Source: a virus (Duplodnaviria; Heunggongvirae; Uroviricota; Caudoviricetes). Taken from it: a stretch of 64,000 nucleotides of DNA. Position numbers and translations under genes: made by a program. Shown here piece by piece: positions 931 through 61,338 of this stretch. Within the stretch, counting starts at the first letter, position 1. The number at the start of each line of letters is the position of its first letter. Under the pieces are notes generated by a model that saw only the letters and a list, made by a program, of their open reading frames with translations, ran no database searches and was not told the origin of the DNA. The DNA lies in IMG/VR virus record IMGVR_UViG_3300037455_000543, positions 187,136 to 251,135 of that record. The stretch is one strand, 5' to 3'.

Positions 931-1359
931 TTAATTAAATTTTAACAATAAGCCGTATTCTTTTTCCAGCTTTTGGACTGTATCAGACATAAGATTATTA
1001 AGAGCGACTTTACTCTTAAACTGTTCAGAAAGTTTTTCAACAGCGTCAATAAATGCTCTGAGTTTTCTAAGTGCATTTTCCTTATTATAGATTTCGTCAG
1101 AGAAAATATAAGATTTGGAATTAATCTTAAATTCAGTACCGGTAGCAAGTGTTATTTCTACCAGTTCATCTGCGAAATCACGAATTATTTCATATACTTC
1201 CTGGAAATGCGTATGGTCAAATCCCTTATCACATGACCAATGGTAAATATGAATTTTGTTAGAAAATGTCAAAGCATCAACAGCAAACGTATAAAGCGCC
1301 TGAAATTCTGCTTCATTCGTACTTGCTAAATAACTTACAAATGTTTCTGTCTGATCCAT
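931..1359 (-). CDS. Ferritin/Dps-like four-helix protein (DUF5856-type)
   Basis: HIYHW...HTHFQEVYE...DELVE metal-ligand pattern; SD and TATAAATA upstream. Confidence 0.7.
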   Translation of the reverse strand: MDQTETFVSYLASTNEAEFQALYTFAVDALTFSNKIHIYHWSCDKGFDHTHFQEVYEIIRDFADELVEITLATGTEFKINSKSYIFSDEIYNKENALRKLRAFIDAVEKLSEQFKSKVALNNLMSDTVQKLEKEYGLLLKFN

Positions 1360-1375
1360 TTTAAATCCTTTTTAT

Positions 1376-1383
1376 TATTTATA
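1376..1383 (-). promoter_or_regulatory. T4-type late promoter TATAAATA
   Basis: Exact motif on minus strand upstream of 1359 start, overlapping the stop of the upstream gene. Confidence 0.7.
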
Positions 1384-3448
1384 ACAATTCCATGTGTTTC
1401 ATTTGAGATTCGACAAAACTTTCTCCATTAAGTGAACTATTGGTTGTAATATGATTCTTCATATACCAGTCTTCACCATATTTTACCAATTCATCTTTAC
1501 TCATATTCGGATCAGTCTGCTTAACATCTTCTATATATTGTTTGAACTTTTTCTGCTCGCCGGAAGGTAAATCTTTAAACATTATTTCGCCATGACGAGA
1601 TACCTTCTTTTCACCTGTTTCAAATGTATGAACCATGCCTAAACTGCCTTCAGTAATTATCTGATTAACATTATAGCTATCCAAATTTACTTTTGCTGCT
1701 TCCTTTGGTTTGGGTTGTTTAACAGGTTCAGCGGATTCTACTTTAATTGGTGTTGATTCAGCCTTAGTAGTACCAGATTCAGCTTTAACCGGTTCAACTG
1801 CTGTTGCTATCGGTGTCGGTTCTACCTTTATCGGTTCTGGCTCTGTCTTAACTGTTTCCATCTTTGCAGCGTCAATAATAGGTTCATCATCTGGATATTC
1901 TATATTAAATAAATCCATGTCAAGTTTATTAGATTCATTTAATGCATGTAATTCATCATAATTATTTCTATCGTTTCTTCCGTCCCACAAAGTAGAAGCA
2001 AGATTATTAGCACCAGTATGCAACATTTCTTCTTTTGTAGGTTCGACAGTAGTAGACATACTCTGTGCATAATCAAATGTCTGAGCCCCTCTATTTCTCT
2101 GGGCAATGGATTCACTAGAACCAAAACGATTCTCAAGAGATTCAATTTGGTCATTTCTAATAGTTTCCATTTCTGCTAACGTACTTACATTTTTGCCATG
2201 TTTAATCTTTGTATTCTCAAATTCTGTTGTCAAATTAGAGAGATTCTTATTCTCAGCTTCAAGTTCATCTCGCAATGCTTTAAGATTATTAGTAGTTTCT
2301 TTAAGTTCAGCTGTTGCAGCTTCAATATTACCGTATGTTTCCTTACGTAACTCAAGATTTGCTTTAAGTGCCGCTTCAGATTCTCTTGCTTTCTTTAAGT
2401 CTGCATGATAACCAGCAGGAGTCCAGTAATCACTATCGTACTTTGTCATCTTATTATTTTCTGCATTCTCCACTAAGCCTTGTGTCTTTCCCTTTGCTTC
2501 GTTATATTTAGCTTCATTTTTAGCAATATCAGCATTTAAACTAGTAAACTTAGCTTCAGCTTCAGCAATCTTAGCTTCAAGTTCTGCAACTTTTGTCTTA
2601 GATTCTTCAATTGCTGCCTGTTGTGCTTCAAGTTTCTTAGCTGAACTCTTTGTCTGCTTTTTGAGGTTTGTTATAGCTTCGCTATTATTACTATAAGCAT
2701 TAGGTGTAAGCATAGAATTAGAATCAGAAGGTGCACGACTTGAACGTTGTGCCATCATTGCTGCATACATTGCAGCGAAATCAATATTAGATTCAGTACT
2801 CTGTTCAGGTAGCTTAACATTAGGATCAGTCTCGCCTTTAGTGCCATAACTACCAGTGCCAACAGGTGCAGCTTCATATTCCATGTATGAAAATGACAAT
2901 TTCCATTTCGCCGGATTATTACTAGAATAATCAAGGTCATATTTTGTATAGTTCGTCAATTTAAGATTTTTAAATGTATAAGTATATATCAATGACGAAA
3001 AATTATTATCATATACTTTAATAACGAGCTGCTTTATATAGTCATTCAGCTTATATGTAAATGTCGTTGTATCAAAAAGTTTATTTAAAAATAAATTTAC
3101 TAATTGCTGAACTACCAAATTATCATTTTTATCATAATATTCCAATAATTCAATATTTAAATCATCTAATGAACTATAATCTGGAATCAAAAATGTTTTT
3201 TCATTATTTCCGTATTTGTAAATTTCTTTCTTATACTTGAATGCCGGTAATGTAACGTCTACACAGTTAAATAGTTCTATTACATAGTTATTTGGTATTG
3301 CATCCATATTAAGACGCTTTACTTTAAATTCTGCAGGAGTGTCATCTGTAGCAAAATCTTCTTTTTCTAGCCATAACTCAACACTGTAAGAATCTGACAA
3401 TTTTACAGTCTTCTTGCTCTGATATCCATATAGATTGCATAAACCCAT
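1379..3448 (-). CDS. Tail-tube-fold (gp19/gp54-like) protein with long coiled-coil and Pro/Glu/Lys-rich extension
   Basis: N-terminal ~190 aa: VTLPAFKY...LNIELLEY...YTFKNLKLTNYTKYDLDYSSNNPAKWKLSFSY, a tube-protein pattern; heptad-rich middle. Confidence 0.6.
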   Translation of the reverse strand: MGLCNLYGYQSKKTVKLSDSYSVELWLEKEDFATDDTPAEFKVKRLNMDAIPNNYVIELFNCVDVTLPAFKYKKEIYKYGNNEKTFLIPDYSSLDDLNIELLEYYDKNDNLVVQQLVNLFLNKLFDTTTFTYKLNDYIKQLVIKVYDNNFSSLIYTYTFKNLKLTNYTKYDLDYSSNNPAKWKLSFSYMEYEAAPVGTGSYGTKGETDPNVKLPEQSTESNIDFAAMYAAMMAQRSSRAPSDSNSMLTPNAYSNNSEAITNLKKQTKSSAKKLEAQQAAIEESKTKVAELEAKIAEAEAKFTSLNADIAKNEAKYNEAKGKTQGLVENAENNKMTKYDSDYWTPAGYHADLKKARESEAALKANLELRKETYGNIEAATAELKETTNNLKALRDELEAENKNLSNLTTEFENTKIKHGKNVSTLAEMETIRNDQIESLENRFGSSESIAQRNRGAQTFDYAQSMSTTVEPTKEEMLHTGANNLASTLWDGRNDRNNYDELHALNESNKLDMDLFNIEYPDDEPIIDAAKMETVKTEPEPIKVEPTPIATAVEPVKAESGTTKAESTPIKVESAEPVKQPKPKEAAKVNLDSYNVNQIITEGSLGMVHTFETGEKKVSRHGEIMFKDLPSGEQKKFKQYIEDVKQTDPNMSKDELVKYGEDWYMKNHITTNSSLNGESFVESQMKHMELL

Positions 3449-3452
3449 ATAC

Positions 3453-3460
3453 TATTTATA
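3453..3460 (-). promoter_or_regulatory. Late promoter TATAAATA, 4 nt from ATG
   Basis: TATAAATA-GTAT-ATG on minus strand. Confidence 0.75.
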
Positions 3461-3474
3461 CTTAATATCCATGT

Positions 3475-3482
3475 TATAAATA
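3475..3482 (+). promoter_or_regulatory. Late promoter TATAAATA, 5 nt from ATG at 3488
   Basis: TATAAATA-TGTAT-ATG. Confidence 0.7.
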
Positions 3483-3487
3483 TGTAT

Positions 3488-4333
3488 ATGACCGATGAAA
3501 ATTTAAAATCATGTCTGAATAAATATTGGACTCCGCAAAAATGCGGAAAAGTTGAAGATTTAGCTGATACTCATGAAAGCCTATTAGCTAAATATATGAA
3601 AGTAAGTCCAAATGACTTATTTGAACAACTTGCTGAAAATAAGTTCAAATTTAAGCCAATGAAGGCATCATGGAGTGAATTCCTTAAAAATGCCAACTTG
3701 GCAGAATATCTTGATCCAAAATATACAGAAGAAGCATTAAATGTAGCAGGTGGTCAACCTGCTATAGGTAAAGGTGAATTCCTATTTGCAAGCTGCTATT
3801 CCAATATAGGTTTTTGCAATGGCCGAGGTGACTTGCGTAATATGGATAATGGTCAAATAACAGAATTTAAAGGCATCAGGTCAAATCTTTCAGGTTATGG
3901 CAATCAATATAAGCAGATGAATTCAAGCTTATTACTTTCTATTTTCGGATTATTCAATACCAATGTTGAAGGTAATAATTTTAACAGAGACATTGCTAAA
4001 AAGCTTGATGAACTATTGAAGAAACAACCTGATAAACTTTTAGAAGTATTGAAAAGATTACAGAATTTAAATGAACCTGATACAAATATTGCCAGTAAAT
4101 ATGAAAAACTATATCAGATTAAACCGAATATATTTGAAGTTGCAGGTGCACAACAGTTAGAAACATATATGACTCAACAGAAAGCATCATTCATGGTATT
4201 TTCAAATGACATCGGTTTCTGTTGCTGTGCATTCCCGAAAACACCGCAAGATGCATATAATGTAGTAACATATAATGGCGTAAAGCTTTCTAGCTGGTTC
4301 GAAGGTGAAACCGGATTTACAATAGGTATCTAA
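3488..4333 (+). CDS. Hypothetical protein, possible PD-(D/E)XK nuclease fold
   Basis: GKGEFLF...GDL...ITEFKG resembles E...D...ExK. Start chosen at the second Met, downstream of the promoter. Confidence 0.45.
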   Translation: MTDENLKSCLNKYWTPQKCGKVEDLADTHESLLAKYMKVSPNDLFEQLAENKFKFKPMKASWSEFLKNANLAEYLDPKYTEEALNVAGGQPAIGKGEFLFASCYSNIGFCNGRGDLRNMDNGQITEFKGIRSNLSGYGNQYKQMNSSLLLSIFGLFNTNVEGNNFNRDIAKKLDELLKKQPDKLLEVLKRLQNLNEPDTNIASKYEKLYQIKPNIFEVAGAQQLETYMTQQKASFMVFSNDIGFCCCAFPKTPQDAYNVVTYNGVKLSSWFEGETGFTIGI

Positions 4334-44900: not shown

Positions 44901-45809
44901 ATGGCTAGAGATTATGCTGCAGAATTCCGAAAATTATTCAGTAACGGGTGTACAGTTCAAGGCTGGGACTGGAATGCGCCTCGTTATTTTGACTCAACAG
45001 AAAACGACTGTTATTCTGCGGAAGCTGCCTTAGTTTCTGAACTTACATCAGAAGCATATAACAATTTTGGTTTCGAAGTCCTTTATTATATAAAGGCCAT
45101 AGATACAAAAATAGACAGACTATATGGCGAAGATCCGCTTGAAAATGTAGAACGTAGATTTAAACTGCAAATGTATACTGACAGCATACCAACTATGCAG
45201 AAAAGCTATGATTTACAGGGTATGATTTATAATGAGCTTATAACCTGTCAATGTACAGTCCAGCATTTTTACGAAGCATCTCAATTATCTTATCCTGATA
45301 TGCAGGATATCTATGAGGCTGAAGTTCCTAGAATAGGCGATATTGTCTATATGGAATATTCAGATACATATTATGAGGTAGTTAATGTAAAACAGTTTGC
45401 TGACAGCACTACATTCTTGTCAACTCCAATGACCTATACGTTTATCTTACGTGTATGGCGCAATAATCATGAAGATGTCGATGTTAATAAGATTAATCCT
45501 GACAAGATGGAAGAATTTAATGAATATGCTTCACTAGGCGAAACATTTAATCTTGACCTTAAAGATACTGAAGAGCATAATACAGCACATGTTCAAGCTG
45601 ATGCTACAGAAGAAAACGGCAAGATTAAAGAAGGCAGTGACATGCTCGCTATTAATGAAGATTTAAAACATGATGAAACATTAAAATATTCTGAAGAAGG
45701 TGAGATTCTCAAAGACGCAAAAGATAATGTTGAATCTCATGTCGTATATAATGACAAAGAAGTCAAGGAAGAAAATCCAGAATATTATGACCCGTTCGGA
45801 GGATGGTAA
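44901..45809 (+). CDS. gp14: Neck protein gp14-like, paralog B
   Basis: FGFEVLYY...DRLYGED...PRIGDIVY...YEVVNV; C-terminus matches paralog A. Confidence 0.75.
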   Translation: MARDYAAEFRKLFSNGCTVQGWDWNAPRYFDSTENDCYSAEAALVSELTSEAYNNFGFEVLYYIKAIDTKIDRLYGEDPLENVERRFKLQMYTDSIPTMQKSYDLQGMIYNELITCQCTVQHFYEASQLSYPDMQDIYEAEVPRIGDIVYMEYSDTYYEVVNVKQFADSTTFLSTPMTYTFILRVWRNNHEDVDVNKINPDKMEEFNEYASLGETFNLDLKDTEEHNTAHVQADATEENGKIKEGSDMLAINEDLKHDETLKYSEEGEILKDAKDNVESHVVYNDKEVKEENPEYYDPFGGW

Positions 45810-47650
45810 TGGGCTTAATAAACATATACAATAGCGTATCTAAATTGAGACCGCATATAACCTATAGGTTCTGTGCTCAAATTAAACCATTTGGTGGCAT
45901 TACTGAAACTAACTTCGATGATGTTATAGAATTTTCAATCAAGAATATTTCTTTCCCGATTTTTAGTATAAGCAACGACAATAAAAGACTTTTTGGTAAC
46001 ACACAAGTTTCTTTCCCAACAATAAAATTTGGCGAACGTGAAATGAATATTACGTTTGAAGAAACGGACGATATGATGGTATTTAAAACCTTATCACATT
46101 TATATGGAGGCAAGCCATATAATAATGAAAGTCTTCCGTTGGTAAACATAAAGGTTACACAGTTTGAAGAATCTATGCTAACTATAGTTGATGAAAAAAC
46201 TTATGTATGTAGAATAAGTCAATTTGATTTTCCTACATTCAATAACAATGACTATGGTTCGCCTATAGAACTTAAAGCATCATTTTATGTTCTTTATAGC
46301 ACATCTGATGAAACAGAGCTTGCTAAAATCAAACTTAACGATGATGGTTCCACTAAACATAAAGAGACTCATAACGGTCTCGATAATATATTCAATCAAT
46401 ATATGCAAGACATAAATGCACAAGAACGCGCCGAAGAAGAAAAAAGAAAGAATCCACCTTTACCTGCTGGTGATGGAAAACCTCTTCCAAAAGGCAAAAA
46501 TACTGACATTATACAGGGTGGGCGTGCATTATTATTACAAGGTGCTTATGATATTGTTGACCCTGCAAAACGTGAGCAATTTATTGCTGATATCGATAAA
46601 TACTCAGCCGATACAAAATTGTCTAAAGCAGAAAAAGAACAGCTTAAAAAAGATTATGGTTTAAGTGATGGATTGTTAGATGATCTACAAGGTAGCTTAG
46701 GTGCCGAACGCCTGTTTAATCCTCATTCTCATCAAGATAATTTAAAGATGACTGCTGAAGAATATGAAAATACAAAGATGTTCTTAAATAATGTTATCAA
46801 ACTGCAAATTGAAGCTGAAATTGCAAACGGTAATAAAGATTGGGAAAAACATACAAGACGATATAAGAACGCAGAAGGTGAAGAAGTCGAAGCGACATAT
46901 TATACCTATGCTGGTAAGGCATCATATGTTAATGATGAAGGAAAAACTATCACGAACAGCTTTAATAGAGAAAAAGTTAAAGAATTTAAAGATCAAAAAG
47001 TTGAAGATGTTGCATTCCATACAACAGGCAATTACTATGCAAATCTTGATACAGTATTAAGTGATATGGCACGAGGTGGTCAAGCTGCAACTATGTTTGA
47101 AGACTTTGCTATCGTTAAAAAAGAAACTGTCGAGAAAGGCCGTGCACATAGTGCATTTGGTCCAGAAGATTATGCTGATGATGCTACTAGAAAAAATACA
47201 TTAGGTATAGAATATGTAAGCGCCTCTGGTGTACATGATAAAAATGGATTACATACTACCCATTCTACTGGCCGTTCGGGCTATATCGAAATCGTTGATG
47301 AAAGCGGCAAAAAAGCACGTTCGCAGGTTGAGGCAGTAGGTGAAGTGGTTGATGATAAAATTCGTGCTAAAGGTAGTAAAAATGCATTATATCATAATGA
47401 ATCGCAAGATCTTGTTCTTAAAGCTGTAACTGATGATATGAATGAACGTGGTGTTGGCGCATTTAACTTCAATAATGCCACTATTGATAGTACTGAACAC
47501 AACCAAAGTAACATTCATAAAAACCAGCGCGGTAAGACAGAACTCATCGCACACGATAATGTTTCTAATAAGGGTAAAGAGGGTGAATCTTCCGTAGATG
47601 CTATGGAATCTACAGTAGCAAACATTAATAGCTGGACAGCTGCTAAATAA
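45809..47650 (+). CDS. Tail-tube-fold protein with C-terminal amidase-like domain
   Basis: ISFPIF...FGEREMNITFEETDD...VKVTQF...CRISQFDFPTF...LKASFYV; C-terminal FHTT/AHSA/LGIEY/IAHD. MGLINIY start parallels MGLCNLY at 3448. Confidence 0.6.
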   Translation: MGLINIYNSVSKLRPHITYRFCAQIKPFGGITETNFDDVIEFSIKNISFPIFSISNDNKRLFGNTQVSFPTIKFGEREMNITFEETDDMMVFKTLSHLYGGKPYNNESLPLVNIKVTQFEESMLTIVDEKTYVCRISQFDFPTFNNNDYGSPIELKASFYVLYSTSDETELAKIKLNDDGSTKHKETHNGLDNIFNQYMQDINAQERAEEEKRKNPPLPAGDGKPLPKGKNTDIIQGGRALLLQGAYDIVDPAKREQFIADIDKYSADTKLSKAEKEQLKKDYGLSDGLLDDLQGSLGAERLFNPHSHQDNLKMTAEEYENTKMFLNNVIKLQIEAEIANGNKDWEKHTRRYKNAEGEEVEATYYTYAGKASYVNDEGKTITNSFNREKVKEFKDQKVEDVAFHTTGNYYANLDTVLSDMARGGQAATMFEDFAIVKKETVEKGRAHSAFGPEDYADDATRKNTLGIEYVSASGVHDKNGLHTTHSTGRSGYIEIVDESGKKARSQVEAVGEVVDDKIRAKGSKNALYHNESQDLVLKAVTDDMNERGVGAFNFNNATIDSTEHNQSNIHKNQRGKTELIAHDNVSNKGKEGESSVDAMESTVANINSWTAAK

Positions 47651-51218: not shown

Positions 51219-52580
51219 TTATTCTAATCCAAGTTTTTCAGCATAATCGGCAATAACATCATTTTGGTCATCTGTTAATGCCCTACCAGCGCCAAGTAAC
51301 TTATCATACATTCTTTGTAATTCACTATGCGATAATGTTCCCATACCCCTAAGTGTTTCCTTAGCATAGGTAACGAATGCGTTATAAGTATTGGCTACAG
51401 ATCTATTATCATTTGCATTATTCTGACGCTGTAATACTGCTCTCTGAATAGGTGTCATTCTCTTTAATCTTACTTTTTCGATAATAGCATTTACACCCTT
51501 AGTGAATGAATCAAAGTCATAGTATTTCAATACGTTACCGAAAGAAGTATTAGACTTGATACCGTAGACTGGCTTCTTAGTTTCGTTAGAAATCTTGAAG
51601 AATGCAGTAAATGTGCCACCGTCAATTGTAACAGCATATTTCTTCTTAAATCTATCCGGGTCATCAGGATTCTGCGGAATATCGTTAACTGTTACCTGTT
51701 TTACGCCAGGCATTTTAGTCAACTTGTCAAGGAAAAGTTCATCTTCAGTCTTACCGCCAGTAATACGTAACTGTTCAGCTTCTTTTCTTGCCGCACGCGT
51801 CGCCTGGTTCGATCCAGATTGACGAATAGACTTATATCCCTCTGTAGAATTAATGAGCTTCTGGGCGCCTAATAACGCGATTATCTTGCCGTCTATACCA
51901 ACAGCCTTATTAAGTTTCTTTTTATTTCCAGCAGCATCAATATCTACACTGAATGGCCATTCTACATTTGTAGTAAACATCAAGTCTTCTGCAATATCAG
52001 CATTAGCGTCAATTACACAGTCATCCGTACCGCCAAGCTTTGTAAACTTGATTGTAAGATTATTATCGTCGTCATAGCCAAGGCTCTTATAAGTCTTAGA
52101 ACTTACATCGTCAATATTGAATTCGGGCGGTTGGTCAATCGGAGTAAATGTAATTTTTATAGCAAGTTCTTCTGTAATATATTCAAGATTGAACTTTACT
52201 GTAATAGTAATAGGCTTCAATTCTACAAGTGTGCTATTTTCATCAAATACTGCCTGGGAATCAAGTTCAACCTTACAATCAGTAAGCTTTTCCTTAAGAT
52301 TATCGTAAATTTCACCGATTTCATAGAATGGAACTTCTTCTATAGCTTCATTTACGACATCTTCAACAAGCATAAATTTTGACAGATAGCTTCTAAAAGA
52401 TTCCTTTTTAATATCAGTCTTTCCTTTAAATGTTTTTACCATATCATACAAGGAGCGTAATTTTTGTGCTTTTGCGATATTATCTTCAAAGAAAGCATCG
52501 CTTATTTCCTGACGGCATTCAGTAAGCCATGTATCTATTTCTTCATTGCTCATATTTCTTGGATCTATATCTAAATTCAT
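51219..52580 (-). CDS. Hypothetical late protein with internal CTS-like motif
   Basis: ESFRSYLSKFMLVE-D; TATAAATA at 52606-52613. Confidence 0.6.
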   Translation of the reverse strand: MNLDIDPRNMSNEEIDTWLTECRQEISDAFFEDNIAKAQKLRSLYDMVKTFKGKTDIKKESFRSYLSKFMLVEDVVNEAIEEVPFYEIGEIYDNLKEKLTDCKVELDSQAVFDENSTLVELKPITITVKFNLEYITEELAIKITFTPIDQPPEFNIDDVSSKTYKSLGYDDDNNLTIKFTKLGGTDDCVIDANADIAEDLMFTTNVEWPFSVDIDAAGNKKKLNKAVGIDGKIIALLGAQKLINSTEGYKSIRQSGSNQATRAARKEAEQLRITGGKTEDELFLDKLTKMPGVKQVTVNDIPQNPDDPDRFKKKYAVTIDGGTFTAFFKISNETKKPVYGIKSNTSFGNVLKYYDFDSFTKGVNAIIEKVRLKRMTPIQRAVLQRQNNANDNRSVANTYNAFVTYAKETLRGMGTLSHSELQRMYDKLLGAGRALTDDQNDVIADYAEKLGLE

Positions 52581-52634
52581 AATAGATTTCCTTATCGTTT
52601 TATATTATTTATAGCGAATTTTAATGCCTAATGT

Positions 52635-52642
52635 TATAAATA
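52635..52642 (+). promoter_or_regulatory. Late promoter for split terminase C-half
   Basis: TATAAATA followed by AAGG SD and ATG 52671. Confidence 0.75.
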
Positions 52643-52670
52643 TATAAGTCTAAATAAAAAGGTAATCTTA

Positions 52671-52973
52671 ATGTTTATAAAATGCGGTGATGAATTTTTA
52701 AAGTTTAAAGGCTTTAGTAAAAAGCTGTCTGATTCATTGGATATCGTATTCGATAATTCAAGATTAAAGTGTTCAGTCGACCATAGGTTTAAAGACAAGA
52801 ATGGTCAAGATATTTTTGCAAAAGATTTACAGAAAGGTGATACTGTAAAGAATACTCAATTCGGTTTAAGCACTGTAATTCAAATAACGCCTATTGGACA
52901 ACATACTGTTTTTACGCCTGTTGATGTCGAAGGCGGACTTTATGAAACATTAAACGGTCTTATAAATCATAAC
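52671..52973 (+). other. IntC fragment (101 aa) of an atypically split intein
   Basis: Block B KCSVDHRF, AKDLQKGD, block F VFTPVDV, terminal INHN/C (Cys+1 at 52974); no block A. Confidence 0.9.
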
Positions 52974-53729
52974 TGCTCATTCATTGGTTCTAGTGCTACT
53001 CTTATCAGTGGTGATATACTTGAAAAACTTACTGAAAAAGAACCTATCGAAGTTTTATTTTCAGATTTGTCATTATCGATTTATGAAAAACCTATACCAA
53101 ATGCTCTGTATGTAATGGGTGTTGACTGTGCTACAGGTGTAGGTAATGACTATTGCGTTGTCCAAGTTGTAAAGATTTTGTCTAAGACAGAAATGTATCA
53201 AGTAGCATGTTATAGGTCAAATACTGTAGAAACTGGTGAATTTTCTCGTGTTATTGATCAATTATCTAAAATGTATAATGACGCATATTTTATTATTGAA
53301 TCGAACGATACTGGTAAGACTGTTGCTGAAGAAGTTTGGTATACACTTGAAAACATGCATTTAATAAATACTGAAAAATCATCACGCGGTTTAGGAACTA
53401 TTGCAGATAAACGTTCCAAGCTAGATGCATGCATGGAATTACGTAGGGTAATGAATGCTGAAATTCTACATGTATGCGATTCTAAAACAATCGAAGAATT
53501 ATCAAGATTCGAAGAACAAAGACCAAATGTCTTTGCAGCTGCAAAAGGTAATCACGATGATACTGTTTCTGCTTTGTATTGGGCAATGTATGCTACCATG
53601 CAACCAGAAATTGACATGGATAACATTAGACAAATAACTAATCAGCAGAACGAAGAAAATATGATGACTGTCGATATGATGGTTAATGATATGGCTAACG
53701 AAGATGATTTCTGGGGTGATTTTAAATGA
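52671..53729 (+). CDS. gp17: Terminase large subunit C-terminal (nuclease) half preceded by split-intein C-fragment
   Basis: Extein CSFIGSSATLIS...YVMGVDCATG..DY...IIESN...GNHDDTVSAL. Confidence 0.93.
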   Translation: MFIKCGDEFLKFKGFSKKLSDSLDIVFDNSRLKCSVDHRFKDKNGQDIFAKDLQKGDTVKNTQFGLSTVIQITPIGQHTVFTPVDVEGGLYETLNGLINHNCSFIGSSATLISGDILEKLTEKEPIEVLFSDLSLSIYEKPIPNALYVMGVDCATGVGNDYCVVQVVKILSKTEMYQVACYRSNTVETGEFSRVIDQLSKMYNDAYFIIESNDTGKTVAEEVWYTLENMHLINTEKSSRGLGTIADKRSKLDACMELRRVMNAEILHVCDSKTIEELSRFEEQRPNVFAAAKGNHDDTVSALYWAMYATMQPEIDMDNIRQITNQQNEENMMTVDMMVNDMANEDDFWGDFK

Positions 53730-54358
53730 GTAATAAAGTATTATGGAAATCATTAGAACCACGTTTTAATACGATGAAACCAGATGATCCATTTGGAACA
53801 TTTCATAAACATTTAGCATTATCGTTGACGGAATGGTTTACGTCATATTTTATTCCTAAACAACAGTTTACCGCAAATGGTATTCAATATATTCCACCAG
53901 CAGAGGAAATTACTTGGTCAGAACCAATGAATCCATTAAGGTATTTTAAGTTTATTACGCCGACAATTTATTTTAGTCCAGCAGAAATAATAACAGTATT
54001 TAAAAAGAAACAATTATCCTGGTCTAAACTATTTGCTTTAATTGGTTCAAAAATTTCTAAACAATTAAATTCTGTTTATTGTATTGTTCCAGGTTCAGCT
54101 ATTGTTGGAACTGCCGCAATACCATTTATGTCATCTCATTTTTCATTTAAAGGACATAAATTTTTTAAATCATTAAAAAAATTAGATTATTCTGCTGAAA
54201 ATATAGAATCTGGAAAAATAACAGAACAGATTTGGGATAAGTTTGAAGATTATTTAGTTGAAGCAATTAATTCAACACCTCCAACAACGATTACAGTTGG
54301 TGGCGCATTACCACCAGGAACTTTTACAGGAACAGTGAATGCAAAGCTCAGTATCTAA
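53726..54358 (+). CDS. Hypothetical protein
   Basis: 210-aa ORF coupled (ATGA) to the terminase half. Confidence 0.55.
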   Translation: MSNKVLWKSLEPRFNTMKPDDPFGTFHKHLALSLTEWFTSYFIPKQQFTANGIQYIPPAEEITWSEPMNPLRYFKFITPTIYFSPAEIITVFKKKQLSWSKLFALIGSKISKQLNSVYCIVPGSAIVGTAAIPFMSSHFSFKGHKFFKSLKKLDYSAENIESGKITEQIWDKFEDYLVEAINSTPPTTITVGGALPPGTFTGTVNAKLSI

Positions 54359-55280
54359 TTATGACCGATTTAATTATTGGGAAATGTACCCAGAAGAACT
54401 TCCATCAAGAGGTATATTTTATAGTAAGGATGCAAGAATCAGAGTAAGAACTATGTCTGTTCTTGAGGTAAAATTCTTAGCTACATATATGGAATCTACA
54501 GCTACACGTATATGTAATGAAATTATCAATAAATGCACAATTTTTGAAAATCTCACTATTGATGAATTGTTGTTGCCAGATAGGGATTATATAATCTTCT
54601 GGATTCGTTTAAATACATTTAATACTTCTAACGGCTTTTCAGTTTCTATACCACATTGTGCTACATGCAATAATGAAATTGTAAAAGATTTATCATTGGA
54701 AACATTTAAGCATAAGTATCTTGATAACGGCTTTGAACCTAATGTCTATCTTCCAGATTTAGGAATGGAAATTCCTATCAAGATTCCTAAATACGGTGAT
54801 TCTATATACAATGTTGAAAATGAAATAGAAGAAGTTGCATTAAGGATAGATTCAGATAATACATTTGAAGAAAAGACTAGATTTGTTTCTTCACTTACTG
54901 CACTTGATTATATTCATCTTAAAGAACATATCGATAAATATAATTGTGGCATAATAGATGAAGTTCCTATATATTGTCCTGAATGTGGAACAGAACATAT
55001 TGTAAAAGTCTATATCAATGACTTGAATATTTTTACACATGTCGAACTTAGAGATATTCTCGAAAAGATTACACAGATTGCAAAATATTCGCATCTTACA
55101 ATTACAAATGATTGGTCATGGGTCGAAGTAGAACTTGAAATGCAGATTATCAATGAGATGATTCGTGAAGAAAATGAAGCTAATCAAAAACAGCTTCAAA
55201 ATATGTCTTCCAGAATGCCATCTGGTTCAATGAATACAACGCCAAAAATGCCAAGTCTTCCATCATTACCGCATATGTAA
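54339..55280 (+). CDS. Baseplate assembly protein gp26-like, paralog B, with gp51-like C-terminus
   Basis: ELPSRGIFY...DRDYIIFWIRL...CATC...CPECG, then LEKITQIAKYSHLTITNDWSWVEVE. Confidence 0.7.
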   Translation: MQSSVSNYDRFNYWEMYPEELPSRGIFYSKDARIRVRTMSVLEVKFLATYMESTATRICNEIINKCTIFENLTIDELLLPDRDYIIFWIRLNTFNTSNGFSVSIPHCATCNNEIVKDLSLETFKHKYLDNGFEPNVYLPDLGMEIPIKIPKYGDSIYNVENEIEEVALRIDSDNTFEEKTRFVSSLTALDYIHLKEHIDKYNCGIIDEVPIYCPECGTEHIVKVYINDLNIFTHVELRDILEKITQIAKYSHLTITNDWSWVEVELEMQIINEMIREENEANQKQLQNMSSRMPSGSMNTTPKMPSLPSLPHM

Positions 55281-55370: not shown

Positions 55371-55970
55371 ATGAAGCAAGATAAAAATAGCGAAGGATAT
55401 ATTTCAAATAAGTATTTACGTGAACTTGTTGTCAAATTTAACGCGATGAATATAAATGACAACGGTAAATGGTGTGATGCTTATGAAAGAAAAATGGATA
55501 AAAAGAATGCCAAGGGCAATATAAAAATCGATAAATATGAAATATCGAAAACATTTATCCAAAGAAAGAAACAACAGATTGCAGCATTGCATGCACGTTA
55601 TGAAAGTTATAACGATGAAGAACGTAGAGCGTTCAATGCAGAATTTGAAAAAGTAAAGAAAGATATTTGCGAAGCTTTCTTGAAAGTTATTGATGGACGT
55701 ATTATCTCCTATAAACTCGTCCAGACACCAGCTTATGAAGAAATTGACGATATCAGACAGGAAGCGCTGATGTCCTTATTCACATATATAAACCGTTATG
55801 ATGAAACACGTAACACAAGTGCATTCGCTTTTGTTACTGAACTTATATCTAATGCCATGAACGGTTATCTCAAGAAGATGAATCAACGTAATGCTGTTCA
55901 GATTACAGGTCTTGATTTCTATGAAAACTTGAATACTATTGATGACCTTTATGGCGAAGATAATGACTAA
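55371..55970 (+). CDS. gp55: Late sigma factor
   Basis: YISNKYL...ICEAFLKVI...YINRYDE...SAFAFVTELI; consistent with genome-wide TATAAATA. Confidence 0.88.
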   Translation: MKQDKNSEGYISNKYLRELVVKFNAMNINDNGKWCDAYERKMDKKNAKGNIKIDKYEISKTFIQRKKQQIAALHARYESYNDEERRAFNAEFEKVKKDICEAFLKVIDGRIISYKLVQTPAYEEIDDIRQEALMSLFTYINRYDETRNTSAFAFVTELISNAMNGYLKKMNQRNAVQITGLDFYENLNTIDDLYGEDND

Positions 55971-55988: not shown

Positions 55989-57197
55989 ATGTTAAATGCG
56001 CATACTGAAAACACAGACGGTAAGCGAATTGCCTTAATATATTGTAGAGATCATTCAGGTTGTTCGCACGTCCGTCTTAGATATAATACAGAATATATAA
56101 ATGGTCATGAACTCGGTGTTGAACCGGTTCTTTTGCCATTTCCGACCTTTGACCCAGCTTTGTTATCAGCAGCAAAGTCAATCGTTATTCAAAGACCTTG
56201 CGTAGGCACAGACATTCAATTACTTAAACGATATAAAGAACTACAGCCGAAGTTTGGATTTAAGCTTGTAGGTGAATTTGATGACCTTATTTTCTATACC
56301 GGTGACTCTGATGAATCTATAGATGGCGTTCCGCCTTATAATCCAGGTCATGCTAATATGAAAGAGCATAAGGATGAAATTAAGGCTATATTGTCTCAGA
56401 CTTTGCCATTACTTGACTTAATTGTTGTTTCTACTGATTATCTTAAGAAGTCTATTGAAAAGGTTTTCGGTGTAAACAATGTAATGGTCATAAAGAATGT
56501 AGTTCCTAGATTCTTATGGAATTTTGAACGTAAAATGCCTATTAAACAGGATCTCGTAAAACCAAGAATTATTTATTCTGGTAGTCCGACTCATTATCAA
56601 CAGCCGATACCGAAGCTTGTTCCTGGTCAACATCCTAATTTTCCGAATGGCCATCCAGGTCAACCCGGTGATAGAGGTGACTGGAATACAGCCCTTTGCG
56701 ACTGGGTTATTAAAATGGTCAAAGAAAATAAGATTGACTTCTATATTATGGGTGCATTACCGTTTTTCTTTGAAGAAATAAAAGAAAAAATTCAGTTTAT
56801 TCCATGGGCTGATTCTCATACATTCCCGAGAAAGTTTATGGAAGTTCATGCTGACTTTAGTATAGCATCAATCGTTGACAATCCTTTTAATAAAGCTAAA
56901 TCATCATTAAGATTTACAGAAGCATGTGCAACAGGTTGCGTCTTTATTGGTAACATTTTTAGTGAGTCTGATACAAGTCCGTACCGTGAAATTCATAATG
57001 ATTGTAAGTTTACAGAAAAATCTACAGTCGATGATATTGATGCAATGTTCTGGAAGCTTTGTAAGAAAGACAAATATAATGAAGTTCTTAACTGGCAATA
57101 TGAATTCATTAATAATTCAGGTTGCTGGCTTGAAAGTGCACAGCATATAAATCAGATGATGCTTATGCTCGATAATAAAGAACAGAATATAATTTAA
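55989..57197 (+). CDS. Glycosyltransferase (GT-B type)
   Basis: SGCSHVRL, EFDDL, LIVVSTDYL, YSGSPTH, DNPFNKAKSSLRFTE. Confidence 0.75.
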   Translation: MLNAHTENTDGKRIALIYCRDHSGCSHVRLRYNTEYINGHELGVEPVLLPFPTFDPALLSAAKSIVIQRPCVGTDIQLLKRYKELQPKFGFKLVGEFDDLIFYTGDSDESIDGVPPYNPGHANMKEHKDEIKAILSQTLPLLDLIVVSTDYLKKSIEKVFGVNNVMVIKNVVPRFLWNFERKMPIKQDLVKPRIIYSGSPTHYQQPIPKLVPGQHPNFPNGHPGQPGDRGDWNTALCDWVIKMVKENKIDFYIMGALPFFFEEIKEKIQFIPWADSHTFPRKFMEVHADFSIASIVDNPFNKAKSSLRFTEACATGCVFIGNIFSESDTSPYREIHNDCKFTEKSTVDDIDAMFWKLCKKDKYNEVLNWQYEFINNSGCWLESAQHINQMMLMLDNKEQNII

Positions 57198-58210: not shown

Positions 58211-58912
58211 ATGTTTGATTCACAAAAATTATCATTCGAAAAATTTATTTTAGGCTATAAACATGGTATCTATGTTTTTACTGAAGATACATGTCATATT
58301 TGCCAGGAGTATAAAGACAGTATTGCATATATTAATAATGCTAATTTATATTTCGTTGAAGTAAGTTTGGAAAGTGAAAAGAAAATTGTAGAAGAACTTT
58401 TAGGTCGTTCCGTTTTTCCTTTGACTGCATGTTTTAAAGATAACAAGCTTAGCTACGTAAAAGCTGGTCAACTTTTTGAAACTCAGTTAGAAGGCATTTT
58501 TGCAGATTTGAAAAAATTTGGCGATAATCCCTTGTCACCTGAAGAAATTCAAAAAAGACTTAAGAAAGAAGAAACGAAATGCAGATTAGCATATTATGTT
58601 TTTTCTAATAGTGTAACTGCAGATGAACGCAAGCAAATTATAGAAAAATCAATTAAATACAATGAGCTTCCAATTGACGTAGATAGTGTTCCAGAAAATT
58701 TATCGTTGGAAGAAAAATTTCATTTGCTAGAATACACGCTTTCATTAGTCAAGCTTGTTATTTTTAAATCAAATAAGTCACAATTATTTTCACCTATTGG
58801 GCAAAGAATTGTTATTGAATATAATAATGCTCATGGTTCTGAAACAAAGTTTGAAATTAGAAACGTTAGTGACATTTTAGGACAATCTGATGATAGAGAT
58901 AATTCCAATTAA
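58211..58912 (+). CDS. Thioredoxin-fold protein
   Basis: FTEDTCHIC (CxxC) and VFPLT cis-Pro motif. Confidence 0.65.
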   Translation: MFDSQKLSFEKFILGYKHGIYVFTEDTCHICQEYKDSIAYINNANLYFVEVSLESEKKIVEELLGRSVFPLTACFKDNKLSYVKAGQLFETQLEGIFADLKKFGDNPLSPEEIQKRLKKEETKCRLAYYVFSNSVTADERKQIIEKSIKYNELPIDVDSVPENLSLEEKFHLLEYTLSLVKLVIFKSNKSQLFSPIGQRIVIEYNNAHGSETKFEIRNVSDILGQSDDRDNSN

Positions 58913-59603
58913 GGAACGTATCGAAGAAAAAACCGTAGATACTGATAAAGTTTTTTATATTGACAATTCACAAGGCGTATCAATGGCAGAAAAATATAAT
59001 TATGCCATTGAGAATATTATATTGAAATCAGATGATCCAGTTATCTGTTTTAGACATTATGACACATTTATTTGCACGCCTAATGATGTATGTCATTATA
59101 AGCTTGAAAAATTATTTGAGAAACACACCATCGGTATAGCTGGCGTTATTGGAACTATTGCACTTGATAGAACTTGCTGTTGGTGGCATGGTGTTTTGAA
59201 CGCTGGTGGCAGACAGAATTTTGGCAGTGGTTCTATTATTCAAGGCGGATTAAATGAAAAATGTCAAGTAATAGAATATCCGATGAATGATCATCCAGGT
59301 GTTCATGATTATCTTGCCACGGTTGACGGATGCTGTATGTTCTTACCGAAATGGATTTTCGAAGAAGGTCTTAGATTTGATGAAAACTTAAAAGATTATC
59401 ATTTTTATGATACCGATATTTCTTTACAAGTTCTTGAACGTGGATATAAGGTTTCAACGATAGATATCAAAGTAAAACATTATAGTCAAGGTAAACCGCC
59501 AAAACAATTTGACGACTTACGTAAAGTTTTCTTTGCTAAATGGGATAAAAAAGTTGGTGGCGACTGGCCAATTTCTAGGCTTAGTAAGTTTAAAAAGGAT
59601 TAA
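58890..59603 (+). CDS. Glycosyltransferase family 2-like
   Basis: AEKYN, FRHYD, IAGVIG, TVDGCC, FDE...HFYDTDISLQ, HYSQG. Confidence 0.78.
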   Translation: MIEIIPIKERIEEKTVDTDKVFYIDNSQGVSMAEKYNYAIENIILKSDDPVICFRHYDTFICTPNDVCHYKLEKLFEKHTIGIAGVIGTIALDRTCCWWHGVLNAGGRQNFGSGSIIQGGLNEKCQVIEYPMNDHPGVHDYLATVDGCCMFLPKWIFEEGLRFDENLKDYHFYDTDISLQVLERGYKVSTIDIKVKHYSQGKPPKQFDDLRKVFFAKWDKKVGGDWPISRLSKFKKD

Positions 59604-59605
59604 CT

Positions 59606-59773
59606 ATGAATAGAATTGTTGACACATTTTTAAAAGATTCTTCTTTTACCATGTTGAATCAAGCAGAAAATTACTATATTTTTAAAGATAATAAAACAAA
59701 TCGTGAAATGAAGATTAATATCATTAACGATAATAAAGTATCTATTGAATTTAAGGAAAATATAGATGGCTGA
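59606..59773 (+). CDS. Small hypothetical protein (55 aa, not in ORF track)
   Basis: MNRIVDTFLKDSSF...KENIDG*; AAGGA upstream; fills the gap and overlaps the next start. Confidence 0.55.
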   Translation: MNRIVDTFLKDSSFTMLNQAENYYIFKDNKTNREMKINIINDNKVSIEFKENIDG

Positions 59774-60188
59774 GAAAAAGAAAAATCCACTGTTTGAAAC
59801 ATTGAATTTTCTTTGTAACAAACAATATACTTGGGATGAATTACCAGAAGAGAATAAGAAAGCTTATTCTCAGTTTATGATTAATAGATTCATGTCAAGC
59901 TATGAATATCTTTTACCGATTCTTTGTGAACTTACAACTATTACTTATACTAATGAACAGCATTATAGAGTTTTATATGAATTCGTAAAAAGAACAAAAC
60001 ATTATTTTAATTATAATGCATATAAGGTTGAAAGTAAAGAAGATCCTGACTTAATTTTAGCAATTAAAAAGGAATATAAGATTGGTAATAGAGAAGCAAG
60101 GCGATATAATGAAGTTCTAACTGAACCACAGAAAGAATATATTAAGAAACGTTGGTCTGATTATATTGCTTATATAAAGTCTAAATAA
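59766..60188 (+). CDS. gp62: Clamp loader small subunit
   Basis: LFETLNFL...YSQFMINRFMS...QHYRVLY...KRTKHYF. Confidence 0.8.
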   Translation: MAEKKKNPLFETLNFLCNKQYTWDELPEENKKAYSQFMINRFMSSYEYLLPILCELTTITYTNEQHYRVLYEFVKRTKHYFNYNAYKVESKEDPDLILAIKKEYKIGNREARRYNEVLTEPQKEYIKKRWSDYIAYIKSK

Positions 60189-60192
60189 AAAT

Positions 60193-60214
60193 AAACCGGT
60201 TATATAACCGGTTT
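60193..60214. terminator. Bidirectional terminator (AACCGGTT arms)
   Basis: AAACCGGTTA-loop-TAACCGGTTT. Confidence 0.85.
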
Positions 60215-60234
60215 TTATTTTTATATCTAAATTT

Positions 60235-60708
60235 TTATCCTTCCAAGGAATTATAGAATACGATAACTGCTGCAGCAAGTTCAAGAACGCCATAATCACG
60301 GCTAGTATAATTCTTGATATACTTGTTGAATGCCTTAGGTGAACATTTAGCACTGTTATTAACAATAGATTCAGGTCTATCTACAGAACCATCTTTAGCT
60401 TCAACAGTTTTAATAATCTGTTCACATGCGCCATGAATTGTTTGTTCCCAAGATTGAATCTGGTCAATAGCGTCATTCATTCTTTTTGTCTGACCCATAT
60501 TATCTTCATAAGCGCTATTAATTGTAGAAATCAAAGAAGTTGCAATTTCAAGTTGCGGCTTAATTGCTTCTCGAATTTCGCTTCTAGTATCTTTTGGCTT
60601 ACTTTCGCTATCATAACTATCTAAGTCAACATCTTCTACAACGATTTTATAATCTTCGTTGTATTTTGCAATATTTTCTACAAGTTTATTGAATTCTTCC
60701 TGTATCAT
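60235..60708 (-). CDS. Hypothetical helical late protein
   Basis: TATAAATA at 60725-60732, AAGGA SD. Confidence 0.6.
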   Translation of the reverse strand: MIQEEFNKLVENIAKYNEDYKIVVEDVDLDSYDSESKPKDTRSEIREAIKPQLEIATSLISTINSAYEDNMGQTKRMNDAIDQIQSWEQTIHGACEQIIKTVEAKDGSVDRPESIVNNSAKCSPKAFNKYIKNYTSRDYGVLELAAAVIVFYNSLEG

Positions 60709-60732
60709 ATCTTTTCCTTTTATATATTTATA

Positions 60733-61338
60733 TTACTTGGTTGACATAATGTAGCTATAGATTTCATTTATTAAACTATCCTTAGAAACCTTAGGTAACT
60801 GGTAACTGTTTACTTGTGTATTAGGTTTTTCTTCTGACTTTTCTCCACCCTGTTTATCAGAAAATTCTTCTTTTGACTTTCCTTCACCTTGCTTATCAGA
60901 ATAATCAACGTCTAAATCTTTACCTTCTTTTGCAAGGGCATTCGCAATAATTACACAACTTGCTGCAATAGCAAAAACATCACGGTCATCAGATGTTTTT
61001 AGATCTTTGCCCATTGTTCCATTAACTACATCGACTGCCTTACCACAATTTAACTGTTTTAACGCTTTACCTTTAGCATTCTCACTAGCGATTTTAGCCG
61101 CAATACCTAAAATACCGGTTGAATTATTTCTGTCTCTTGTTCCAAGCGCAGTTTCAGCAATTTTTGTTTCTGCAGCATCGAATTCTTTAGCCTTAGAAAG
61201 ATCATAGACGTCAGAATTAATATCAGTCGGTAATAAAGTATTAAAATTAATTGGCTTTTTGTCGATTCTAGCCTTTAAATCCTTAATGGAAGCGATAACG
61301 TGATCGCCAACTTGTGCTTCTTCATTTAAATTAATCAT
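60733..61338 (-). CDS. Hypothetical, putative internal/ejection protein
   Basis: MINLNE leader; Ala/Lys-rich; coupled to the upstream gene. Confidence 0.55.
   Translation of the reverse strand: MINLNEEAQVGDHVIASIKDLKARIDKKPINFNTLLPTDINSDVYDLSKAKEFDAAETKIAETALGTRDRNNSTGILGIAAKIASENAKGKALKQLNCGKAVDVVNGTMGKDLKTSDDRDVFAIAASCVIIANALAKEGKDLDVDYSDKQGEGKSKEEFSDKQGGEKSEEKPNTQVNSYQLPKVSKDSLINEIYSYIMSTK

Follow-up and report, generated by a model that had tools for sequence, protein, structure and literature searches.

What becomes of the large terminase subunit (TerL) of a phage when the gene for its nuclease domain begins inside an intein, with no ATPase domain in front of it? This question is raised by a stretch of 64,000 nucleotides from a virus of the Caudoviricetes, referred to here as the window, which comprises bases 187136-251135 of the 424,163-bp IMG/VR record IMGVR_UViG_3300037455_000543. 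The completeness of the record is estimated at 100% by CheckV; positions without prefix are those of the window, whereas positions with the prefix C1 are those of the record. At 52671-53729 (+) the DNA reads as an open reading frame (ORF) of 352 amino acids (aa), in which a 101-aa C-terminal intein fragment (IntC) is fused to a TerL nuclease domain. We consider it highly probable that this gene is the C half of a TerL gene broken within a mini-intein and that the two halves are joined by protein trans-splicing. The C half and its immediate surroundings contain the following features:

52629-52631 (+): in-frame TAA stop codon, 14 codons 5' of the start codon, which closes the frame (read from the DNA)
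52635-52642 (+): TATAAATA, a motif resembling T4-type late promoters, 36 nt before the ATG of the C half
52671-52973 (+): IntC, the 101-aa C-terminal fragment of an atypically split mini-intein, with blocks B, F and G (profile match to 6DSL_B, CatC)
52767-52784 (+): block B region KCSVDH, aa 33-38, with the catalytic S-x-x-H, conserved in 72 homologues
52905-52973 (+): blocks F and G, aa 79-101, ending in His100-Asn101 (homologue alignment)
52974-52976 (+): codon of Cys102, the +1 nucleophile and first residue of the C-extein, present in 72/72 homologues
52974-53729 (+): C-extein, comprising the hinge and RNase H-like nuclease of a gp17-type large terminase, 251 aa and stop codon (Pfam, gp17 structures)

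Residues 1-101 have the anatomy that an earlier note on this DNA had read from them: they carry block B, block F and a terminal His-Asn followed by Cys, and block A is not present in these residues. At the block F position that is usually Asp, the C half has Thr82, followed by Pro83. The identity of the extein is established by several lines of homology. Pfam Terminase_6C matches aa 149-306 of the C half (E 6.7e-12), PHROGs assigns the protein to the terminase large subunit, and residues 102-352 match the structures of T4 and RB49 gp17 with E-values of 1e-17 to 1e-18. The segment SFIGSSATLISG, which follows Cys102, aligns with T4 gp17 from residue 355, that is, with the hinge after the ATPase domain. 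The acidic nuclease residues D152, E210 and D296 are invariant among the aligned homologues; the nuclease part of the ORF is intact, and its nonsynonymous divergence (dN) is far below the synonymous one (dS).

The C-half gene truly begins inside the intein, since the TAA at 52629-52631 closes its frame and none of the 13 codons read between this stop and the ATG at 52671 is ATG, GTG or TTG; the claim of the earlier note that the start had not been mis-called thus holds. The 90 bp 5' of the ORF are an intergenic spacer to a divergent 453-aa gene (51219-52580, -), which makes an ATPase domain upstream of the C half impossible in any frame. The gene had also been credited with a promoter motif of its own, which we found at 52635-52642, and with a Shine-Dalgarno sequence, for which the DNA offers only a weak AAAGG (52658-52662). 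A mis-assembly just upstream of 52671, named beforehand as an observation that would speak against a split gene, is absent: a 3,988-nt contig from another study spans window positions 51900-53900 with 27 substitutions and 0 gaps. Further, ~80 clusters of 345-385-aa homologues (38-100% identity) start at the same point as the C half, and at least 486 IMG/VR stretches encode its relatives. The independent contig and the common start of the homologues indicate that the split C half is not an assembly artefact.

If the C half lacks the ATPase, this should be encoded elsewhere, together with the missing part of the intein. The earlier note had predicted an ATPase half ending in an IntN (N-terminal intein fragment) of ~25 aa and had proposed a search of the full genome for it. 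A search of the whole record with Terminase_6N found two ORFs, one of which, a 306-aa ORF at C1:185460-186380 (+), is the partner. It lies just outside the window, 756 bp before its start; the IntC gene follows 53.4 kb downstream on the same strand (239806-240864 (+) in genome coordinates). The partner, TerL-N, consists of a 271-aa gp17-type ATPase with intact Walker A (GRQCGKT) and Walker B (LVDEFAF) motifs, which matches T4 gp17 with an E-value of 2.8e-37 and ends in QEYA, followed by an IntN that starts with Cys1 and runs to the stop codon. The prediction of a partner was therefore right, while its IntN is longer than expected, at 35 aa. It begins Cys-Leu-Leu-Gly-Asp-Glu-Lys-Ile-Thr-Val and continues for 25 further residues, which together correspond to block A and the first intein strands.

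An alternative explanation is that the gene is broken only in appearance, through an artefact of assembly or gene calling, and is either contiguous or interrupted by an intron at the RNA level. There is a precedent for the latter in the Jug phages, related gut huge phages in which terL is fragmented by group I introns and the adjacent fragments are co-transcribed (PMC12880540). Here, however, the start region is reproduced by the independent contig, structural genes lie between the two halves, and in relatives the halves are found on opposite strands. Over 53 kb, or across strands, an RNA-level intron mechanism of the Jug type cannot apply; nor would such a mechanism need the complementary intein fragment that each half carries. 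We regard this explanation as extremely improbable. In the literature searched, of which only the Jug-phage account was examined closely, we met no account of a protein-level terL split in related phages.

The pair is unique in its genome: by tblastn and profile searches in six frames, nuclease, IntC and IntN each occur exactly once, and an intact gp17 is not found elsewhere in the genome. This bears on a second alternative, that the C half is a decaying terminase relic and that packaging is carried out by another intact terminase or by an ATPase-only paralogue. An intact gp17 with the C half as its relic had been named by the earlier note as an outcome that would overturn its reading. The genome does encode a second gp17-type ATPase, P0087 (C1:8647-9570, -; 308 aa), which is 41% identical to the N half and would be a candidate for such a role. 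In a genome estimated to be 100% complete there is, however, neither a second nuclease domain nor a full-length TerL, and the intact ORF of the C half, its low nuclease dN and its conservation in the IMG/VR stretches counted above are not those of a relic. The probability we assign to a relic is accordingly minimal.

The paralogue P0087 has intact Walker A (PRQCGKT) and Walker B (VFDEMAF) motifs, no intein and no nuclease domain; its sequence reads through the junction as QEYDTQFLGS and then continues into an unrelated tail. A genome-wide motif scan found no TATAAATA upstream of P0087. Paralogues of this type, with frames of 259-267 aa, are conserved in four related genomes (G001-G003 and G008). 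MAFFT aligned the tail of P0087 with IntN, but we rejected it as IntN-like, since the IntN profile misses it in the six-frame genome; the next-best match of this profile after the true IntN has an E-value of 0.13 and is located elsewhere. We likewise rejected a candidate for a second nuclease at C1:354970-355137 (Terminase_6C, E 0.0013), which lies in a 500-aa ORF adjoining an AAA-type ATPase gene; when read, this ORF showed nothing typical of a terminase. By tblastn, the TerL ATPase also has a third match, very distant, at C1:93541-93990 (-) (E 0.002).

To which family does the intein belong? The best PDB match of a profile of the IntC family is 6DSL_B, CatC (E 9.4e-13, over the whole fragment), followed by the gp41-1, DnaX and VidaL inteins, and the best PDB match of a profile of the IntN family is 6DSL_A, CatN (E 7.8e-7). 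PDB entry 6DSL is Cat-TerL, an engineered consensus of AceL-TerL and GOS-TerL, in which chain A is CatN and chain B is CatC. A likeness to AceL-TerL and GOS-TerL had been suggested by eye; it is borne out by the profiles of the two fragments, whose top matches are the two chains of this one structure, and by the fragment sizes of 35 and 101 aa. AceL-TerL has an IntN of 25 and an IntC of 104 aa, and GOS-TerL has fragments of 37 and 115 aa (PMC11766414); in the GOS terminase intein, the break has also been described as unusually placed, leaving a C part of 122 residues that lacks only motif N1 (PMC2677866). The extein contexts agree as well, with EFE/A(C1A)LSGD and SHA/CE in Cat-TerL and QEYA/CLLGD and NHN/CS here (the slash marks the splice site), and so do the break points, residue 18 of CatC pairing with residue 2 of IntC. 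By these comparisons of family, insertion site and break point, the intein is a member of the atypically split TerL kind represented by GOS-TerL, AceL-TerL and Cat-TerL.

The residues on which splicing would depend are conserved throughout this family. There are hundreds of N halves of ~297-306 aa, all of which end some 30-39 aa past QE[YF]x-Cys; Cys1 is found in 119 of 120 N halves, and the IntN tails are mostly 30-39 aa long. Among 72 C halves of 38-100% identity, position 35 of block B is Ser or Thr in all, His38, Asn101 and Cys102 (+1) are each invariant (72/72), and the penultimate His is present in 67. The catalytic residues of a class 1 intein (Cys1, the block B Ser/Thr and His, the terminal Asn and Cys+1) are thus all in place, with one departure from the class: the block F Asp (F:4), which CatC and the contiguous relatives possess, is Thr or Ser in 67/72 homologues and Asp in only 2/72. 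In the class 1 inteins that have been studied, this Asp aids a step involving Cys+1; it is common among inteins and not required of all. Compared with close relatives, the IntC has a dN/dS of 0.06-0.10, which indicates purifying selection.

Two observations concern the relative divergence of the parts. Between window positions 52671-53726 and a 95%-identical relative (L006:1196-2251), dS is ~1.3 for the IntC codons and ~0.2 for the nuclease codons, a difference that hints at an exchange of the intein part by recombination, independently of the extein. Between this genome and its relative G001, the N halves are 87% identical and the C halves 64%.

We modelled the complex of IntC (aa 1-112) with IntN (residues 268-306 of the N half). 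The model scored 0.79, the best of 3 controls scoring 0.00, and thereby passed a mark that is reached by 58/80 solved complexes and by 2/110 mismatched pairs. At least 93% of the contacts recur between its runs, and for the partner the pLDDT (predicted local distance difference test) is at least 83. In the modelled interface, the part of IntN around Cys1 contacts block B (aa 32-35), block F (aa 78-83) and the HN-C end (aa 99-103). The predicted spliced junction QEYA + CSFIGSSATLISG matches the contiguous TerLs P0080, P0083 and P0085, and T4 gp17 from residue 355. Intein-less relatives also have a Cys at the +1 position, for example QEYG-CRFIGS in P0080.

From this we infer that the halves are co-expressed, bind each other in the cell and are spliced. 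In the proposed mechanism, the short IntN would dock into a partly folded IntC and complete the HINT fold. Class 1 chemistry could then proceed by formation of a thioester at Cys1, trans-thioesterification to Cys+1, cyclisation of Asn101 and an S-to-N acyl shift. The product would be a contiguous TerL of 522 aa (~60 kDa) with the junction QEYA-CSFIGS, the two intein pieces being released; the predicted tryptic peptide across the junction is DFGIQMFQQEYACSFIGSSATLISGDILEK.

Several points weigh against this scenario. The Pfam models Intein_splicing (PF14890) and Hint_2 (PF13403) have no matches in the whole genome, and a phmmer search of the PDB with the single IntC sequence yielded only a marginal match to gp41-1 (E 0.63) and did not reach 6DSL. 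As the fragments are too short and divergent for the Pfam models, their silence is no evidence against an intein, yet with these models and the single sequence being too weak, the family placement depends on the profiles. With Thr82 in place of the block F Asp, the splicing chemistry may be slower or tuned differently. 6DSL is a solved complex of like kind, so that the pass of our model may reflect recall or likeness rather than independent support. RNA-library contigs cover the C half only at 53170-53389 (220 nt, one run), besides parts of the upstream gene; a single contig of this length, for which DNA carry-over is possible, is too little for a claim on transcription or its timing. Finally, the spliced product is, for this phage, a prediction from sequence and model.

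Could the intein pieces have lost splicing and now serve as a non-covalent dimerisation module, holding together ATPase and nuclease as separate subunits? The prevalence of Thr or Ser over Asp in block F would suit such a module, the complex model backs docking and is silent on chemistry, and the spliced product is a predicted one. The invariance of Cys1, of the block B His, of the terminal Asn and of Cys+1, down to 38% identity, would however be needless for docking, and in vitro splicing is established for AceL-TerL and GOS-TerL, which are close homologues (PMC11766414). We therefore judge a docking-only module to be improbable, and trans-splicing of the two halves, as predicted from sequence and model, to be very likely.

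How widespread is the split, and how are its halves arranged? Sequencing runs that contain the stretch come from 14 studies and are metagenomes of bovine, sheep and goat gut. In each of two relatives, estimated to be 100% and 98% complete, a single N half and a single C half are separated by 58-59 kb; the arrangement varies among the genomes as follows:

G000 (this genome): C half 239806-240864 (+), N half 185460-186380 (+); same strand, 53.4 kb
G001 (415,750 bp, estimated 100% complete): C half 45231-46283 (-), N half 104931-105848 (+); opposite strands, 58-59 kb
G002 (estimated 98% complete): C half 331185-332231 (+), N half 271682-272635 (-); opposite strands, 58-59 kb
G003: C half 95378-96424 (-), N half 154974-155927 (+); opposite strands, 58-59 kb
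G006: C half ~52547-53551 (+), N half 1281-2156 (-); opposite strands, ~50 kb
G007: C half ~98822-99826 (+), N half 45643-46518 (-); opposite strands, ~52 kb
G008: C half 106844-107812 (+), N half 3336-4187 (+); same strand, ~103 kb
G004 and three relatives (L037-L040): in G004, C half 58839-59882 (-), N half 59990-60940 (+); adjacent and divergent, with a 107-bp spacer and no gene between

To judge from these genomes and from the homologues of both halves, a large clade of jumbo phages from the ruminant gut carries the split as a fixed trait. In the subclade whose halves are adjacent and divergent (L086:1501-2580 of G004; P0103-P0105), the tail of the N half extends for 59-76 aa after Cys1 and so exceeds the usual IntN by 25-40 aa.

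Against 1.84 billion representative proteins, a profile search gave 3,020 matches at E <=0.001, 684 of which reached 1e-10. Among the best 150 of the 3,020, 60 consist of an N-terminal IntC and a TerL C-extein, split as here, ~19-26 are contiguous mini-inteins at the same TerL site, and 21 have an N-terminal IntC with other exteins; the remainder are internal inteins elsewhere. The contiguous TerL mini-inteins of metagenomic phages (for example P0264, P0271, P0289 and P0316) align over their full length with IntN and IntC and share the extein motifs, but are uninterrupted, with a linker loop of variable length at the position of the break. Their end-to-end alignment, and the location of the break in this variable loop, suggest that a mini-intein may have undergone fission to give the split form. 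Four proteins of metagenomic relatives (P0083, P0284, P0268, P0290) are TerLs that start with an IntC-like fragment at another site, just before the region following Walker A, and also have a contiguous intein at QEYx/C; atypical breaks thus seem to occur at more than one position in TerL.

Both halves of the terminase stand behind the motif TATAAATA, which is located at -47 of the N half and at -36 of the C half. In the window, the motif has 28 copies where 14.6 are expected, and 0/100 shuffles reach 28. Genome-wide, 64/125 copies lie 5-60 nt 5' of an ATG on the same strand that opens an ORF of at least 100 aa; from position alone, the expectation for such places is ~5% or less. The two halves are therefore both probably made late in infection, and their late co-expression is plausible. 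In the spacer upstream of the C half (52581-52670) there are two opposed copies, 52606-52613 (-) and 52635-52642 (+), one for each of the divergent genes. The genes downstream of the C half include a candidate for the sigma factor:

54339-55280: T4 baseplate-hub-like gene, neighbour of the sigma factor candidate
55371-55970 (+): candidate gp55-like late sigma factor (PHROG 234, E 3.6e-5; Sigma70_r2, E 1.8e-4)
55989-57197: glycosyltransferase-like gene, neighbour of the sigma factor candidate

The ends of the genome (C1:1-127 and 424037-424163) form a 127-bp direct terminal repeat. A repeat as short as this has the look of an overlap left by an assembly that is circular or circularly permuted, and not of physical ends; headful packaging by a terminase of the gp17 type would agree with it.

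The split has consequences for the way in which such genomes are read. TerL is a standard marker for tailed phages, and in this clade it will always be called as two unrelated-looking genes of ~300 and ~350 aa, so that completeness checks, TerL trees and searches for missing terminases are misled as long as the halves are not recognised and joined. In intein biology, the family stands out by a split after block A that is fixed in many jumbo-phage genomes, by contiguous inteins at this very site, by breaks of the same type with other exteins, and by halves that have drifted 50-100 kb apart, like those of cyanobacterial dnaE. Split inteins with a short IntN are in demand for labelling, and the family supplies many natural variants that come from a warm-bodied habitat, the ruminant gut, and have an unusual block F that may be worth testing. 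A further-reaching idea is that the terminase is permanently broken into two dispersed late genes, that trans-splicing with a Thr-Pro block F intein is obligatory for packaging, and that the split is a gate and not a neutral scar. We think this unlikely, though not negligibly so; if true, the gate would attach the nuclease to the motor only once both halves accumulate, and the conserved ATPase-only TerL paralogue might share in the same control.

This kind of terminase split is already known from other phage terminases. What our analysis adds is its clade-wide fixation, the dispersal of the halves without an endonuclease, the coexistence of contiguous alleles and the non-canonical block F. The fractured genes described previously are phage genes broken inside an intein, the terminase locus being the one case with a break at this unusual point (PMC2677866). 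The locus studied here shares the break within an intein and, with that terminase locus, the kind of break. In the fractured genes, however, the halves adjoin around a free-standing homing endonuclease gene, whereas here they are 53.4 kb apart, and in relatives 50-103 kb apart and often on opposite strands, or adjacent but divergent. In this genome, PHROG and Pfam searches detected no endonuclease domain in the genes flanking either half, which sets the locus apart from the fractured-gene layout of Dassa et al. (2009).

With AceL-TerL, GOS-TerL and Cat-TerL, the intein shares its host protein, a gp17-type TerL, its location at the hinge between ATPase and nuclease, and the site QE[FY]x / C ... 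HN / C-x-F. As in AceL-TerL and GOS-TerL, the break lies between blocks A and B. IntN is thereby short, at 35 aa as against 25 and 37 aa in the published pair, and IntC is long, at 101 aa as against 104 and 115-122 aa; Cys1 and Cys+1 are shared with AceL-TerL. The sequences are nevertheless distant, to the point that phmmer with the single IntC does not reach 6DSL, and block F has Thr-Pro where CatC has Asp-Leu. The sources differ as well, being a complete 424-kb ruminant-gut phage genome here and aquatic metagenome reads for AceL-TerL and GOS-TerL, and in contrast to these two the present phage intein is known from sequence and model alone.

Natural inteins split after block A had been regarded as rare, AceL-TerL and GOS-TerL being the studied cases. 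In genome layout, the locus resembles another system, the DnaE split intein of cyanobacteria, whose distant dnaE-n and dnaE-c genes are fixed in a whole lineage and whose products are joined by protein trans-splicing. Both systems concern an essential enzyme encoded by two distant genes throughout a lineage, with trans-splicing known for DnaE and inferred here. They differ in the point of the break, as the DnaE intein has the canonical break, which falls between blocks B and F and gives a long IntN and a short IntC, and the terminase intein is split after block A. The likeness to dnaE-n and dnaE-c is thus one of genome layout, and that to AceL-TerL and GOS-TerL one of intein type.

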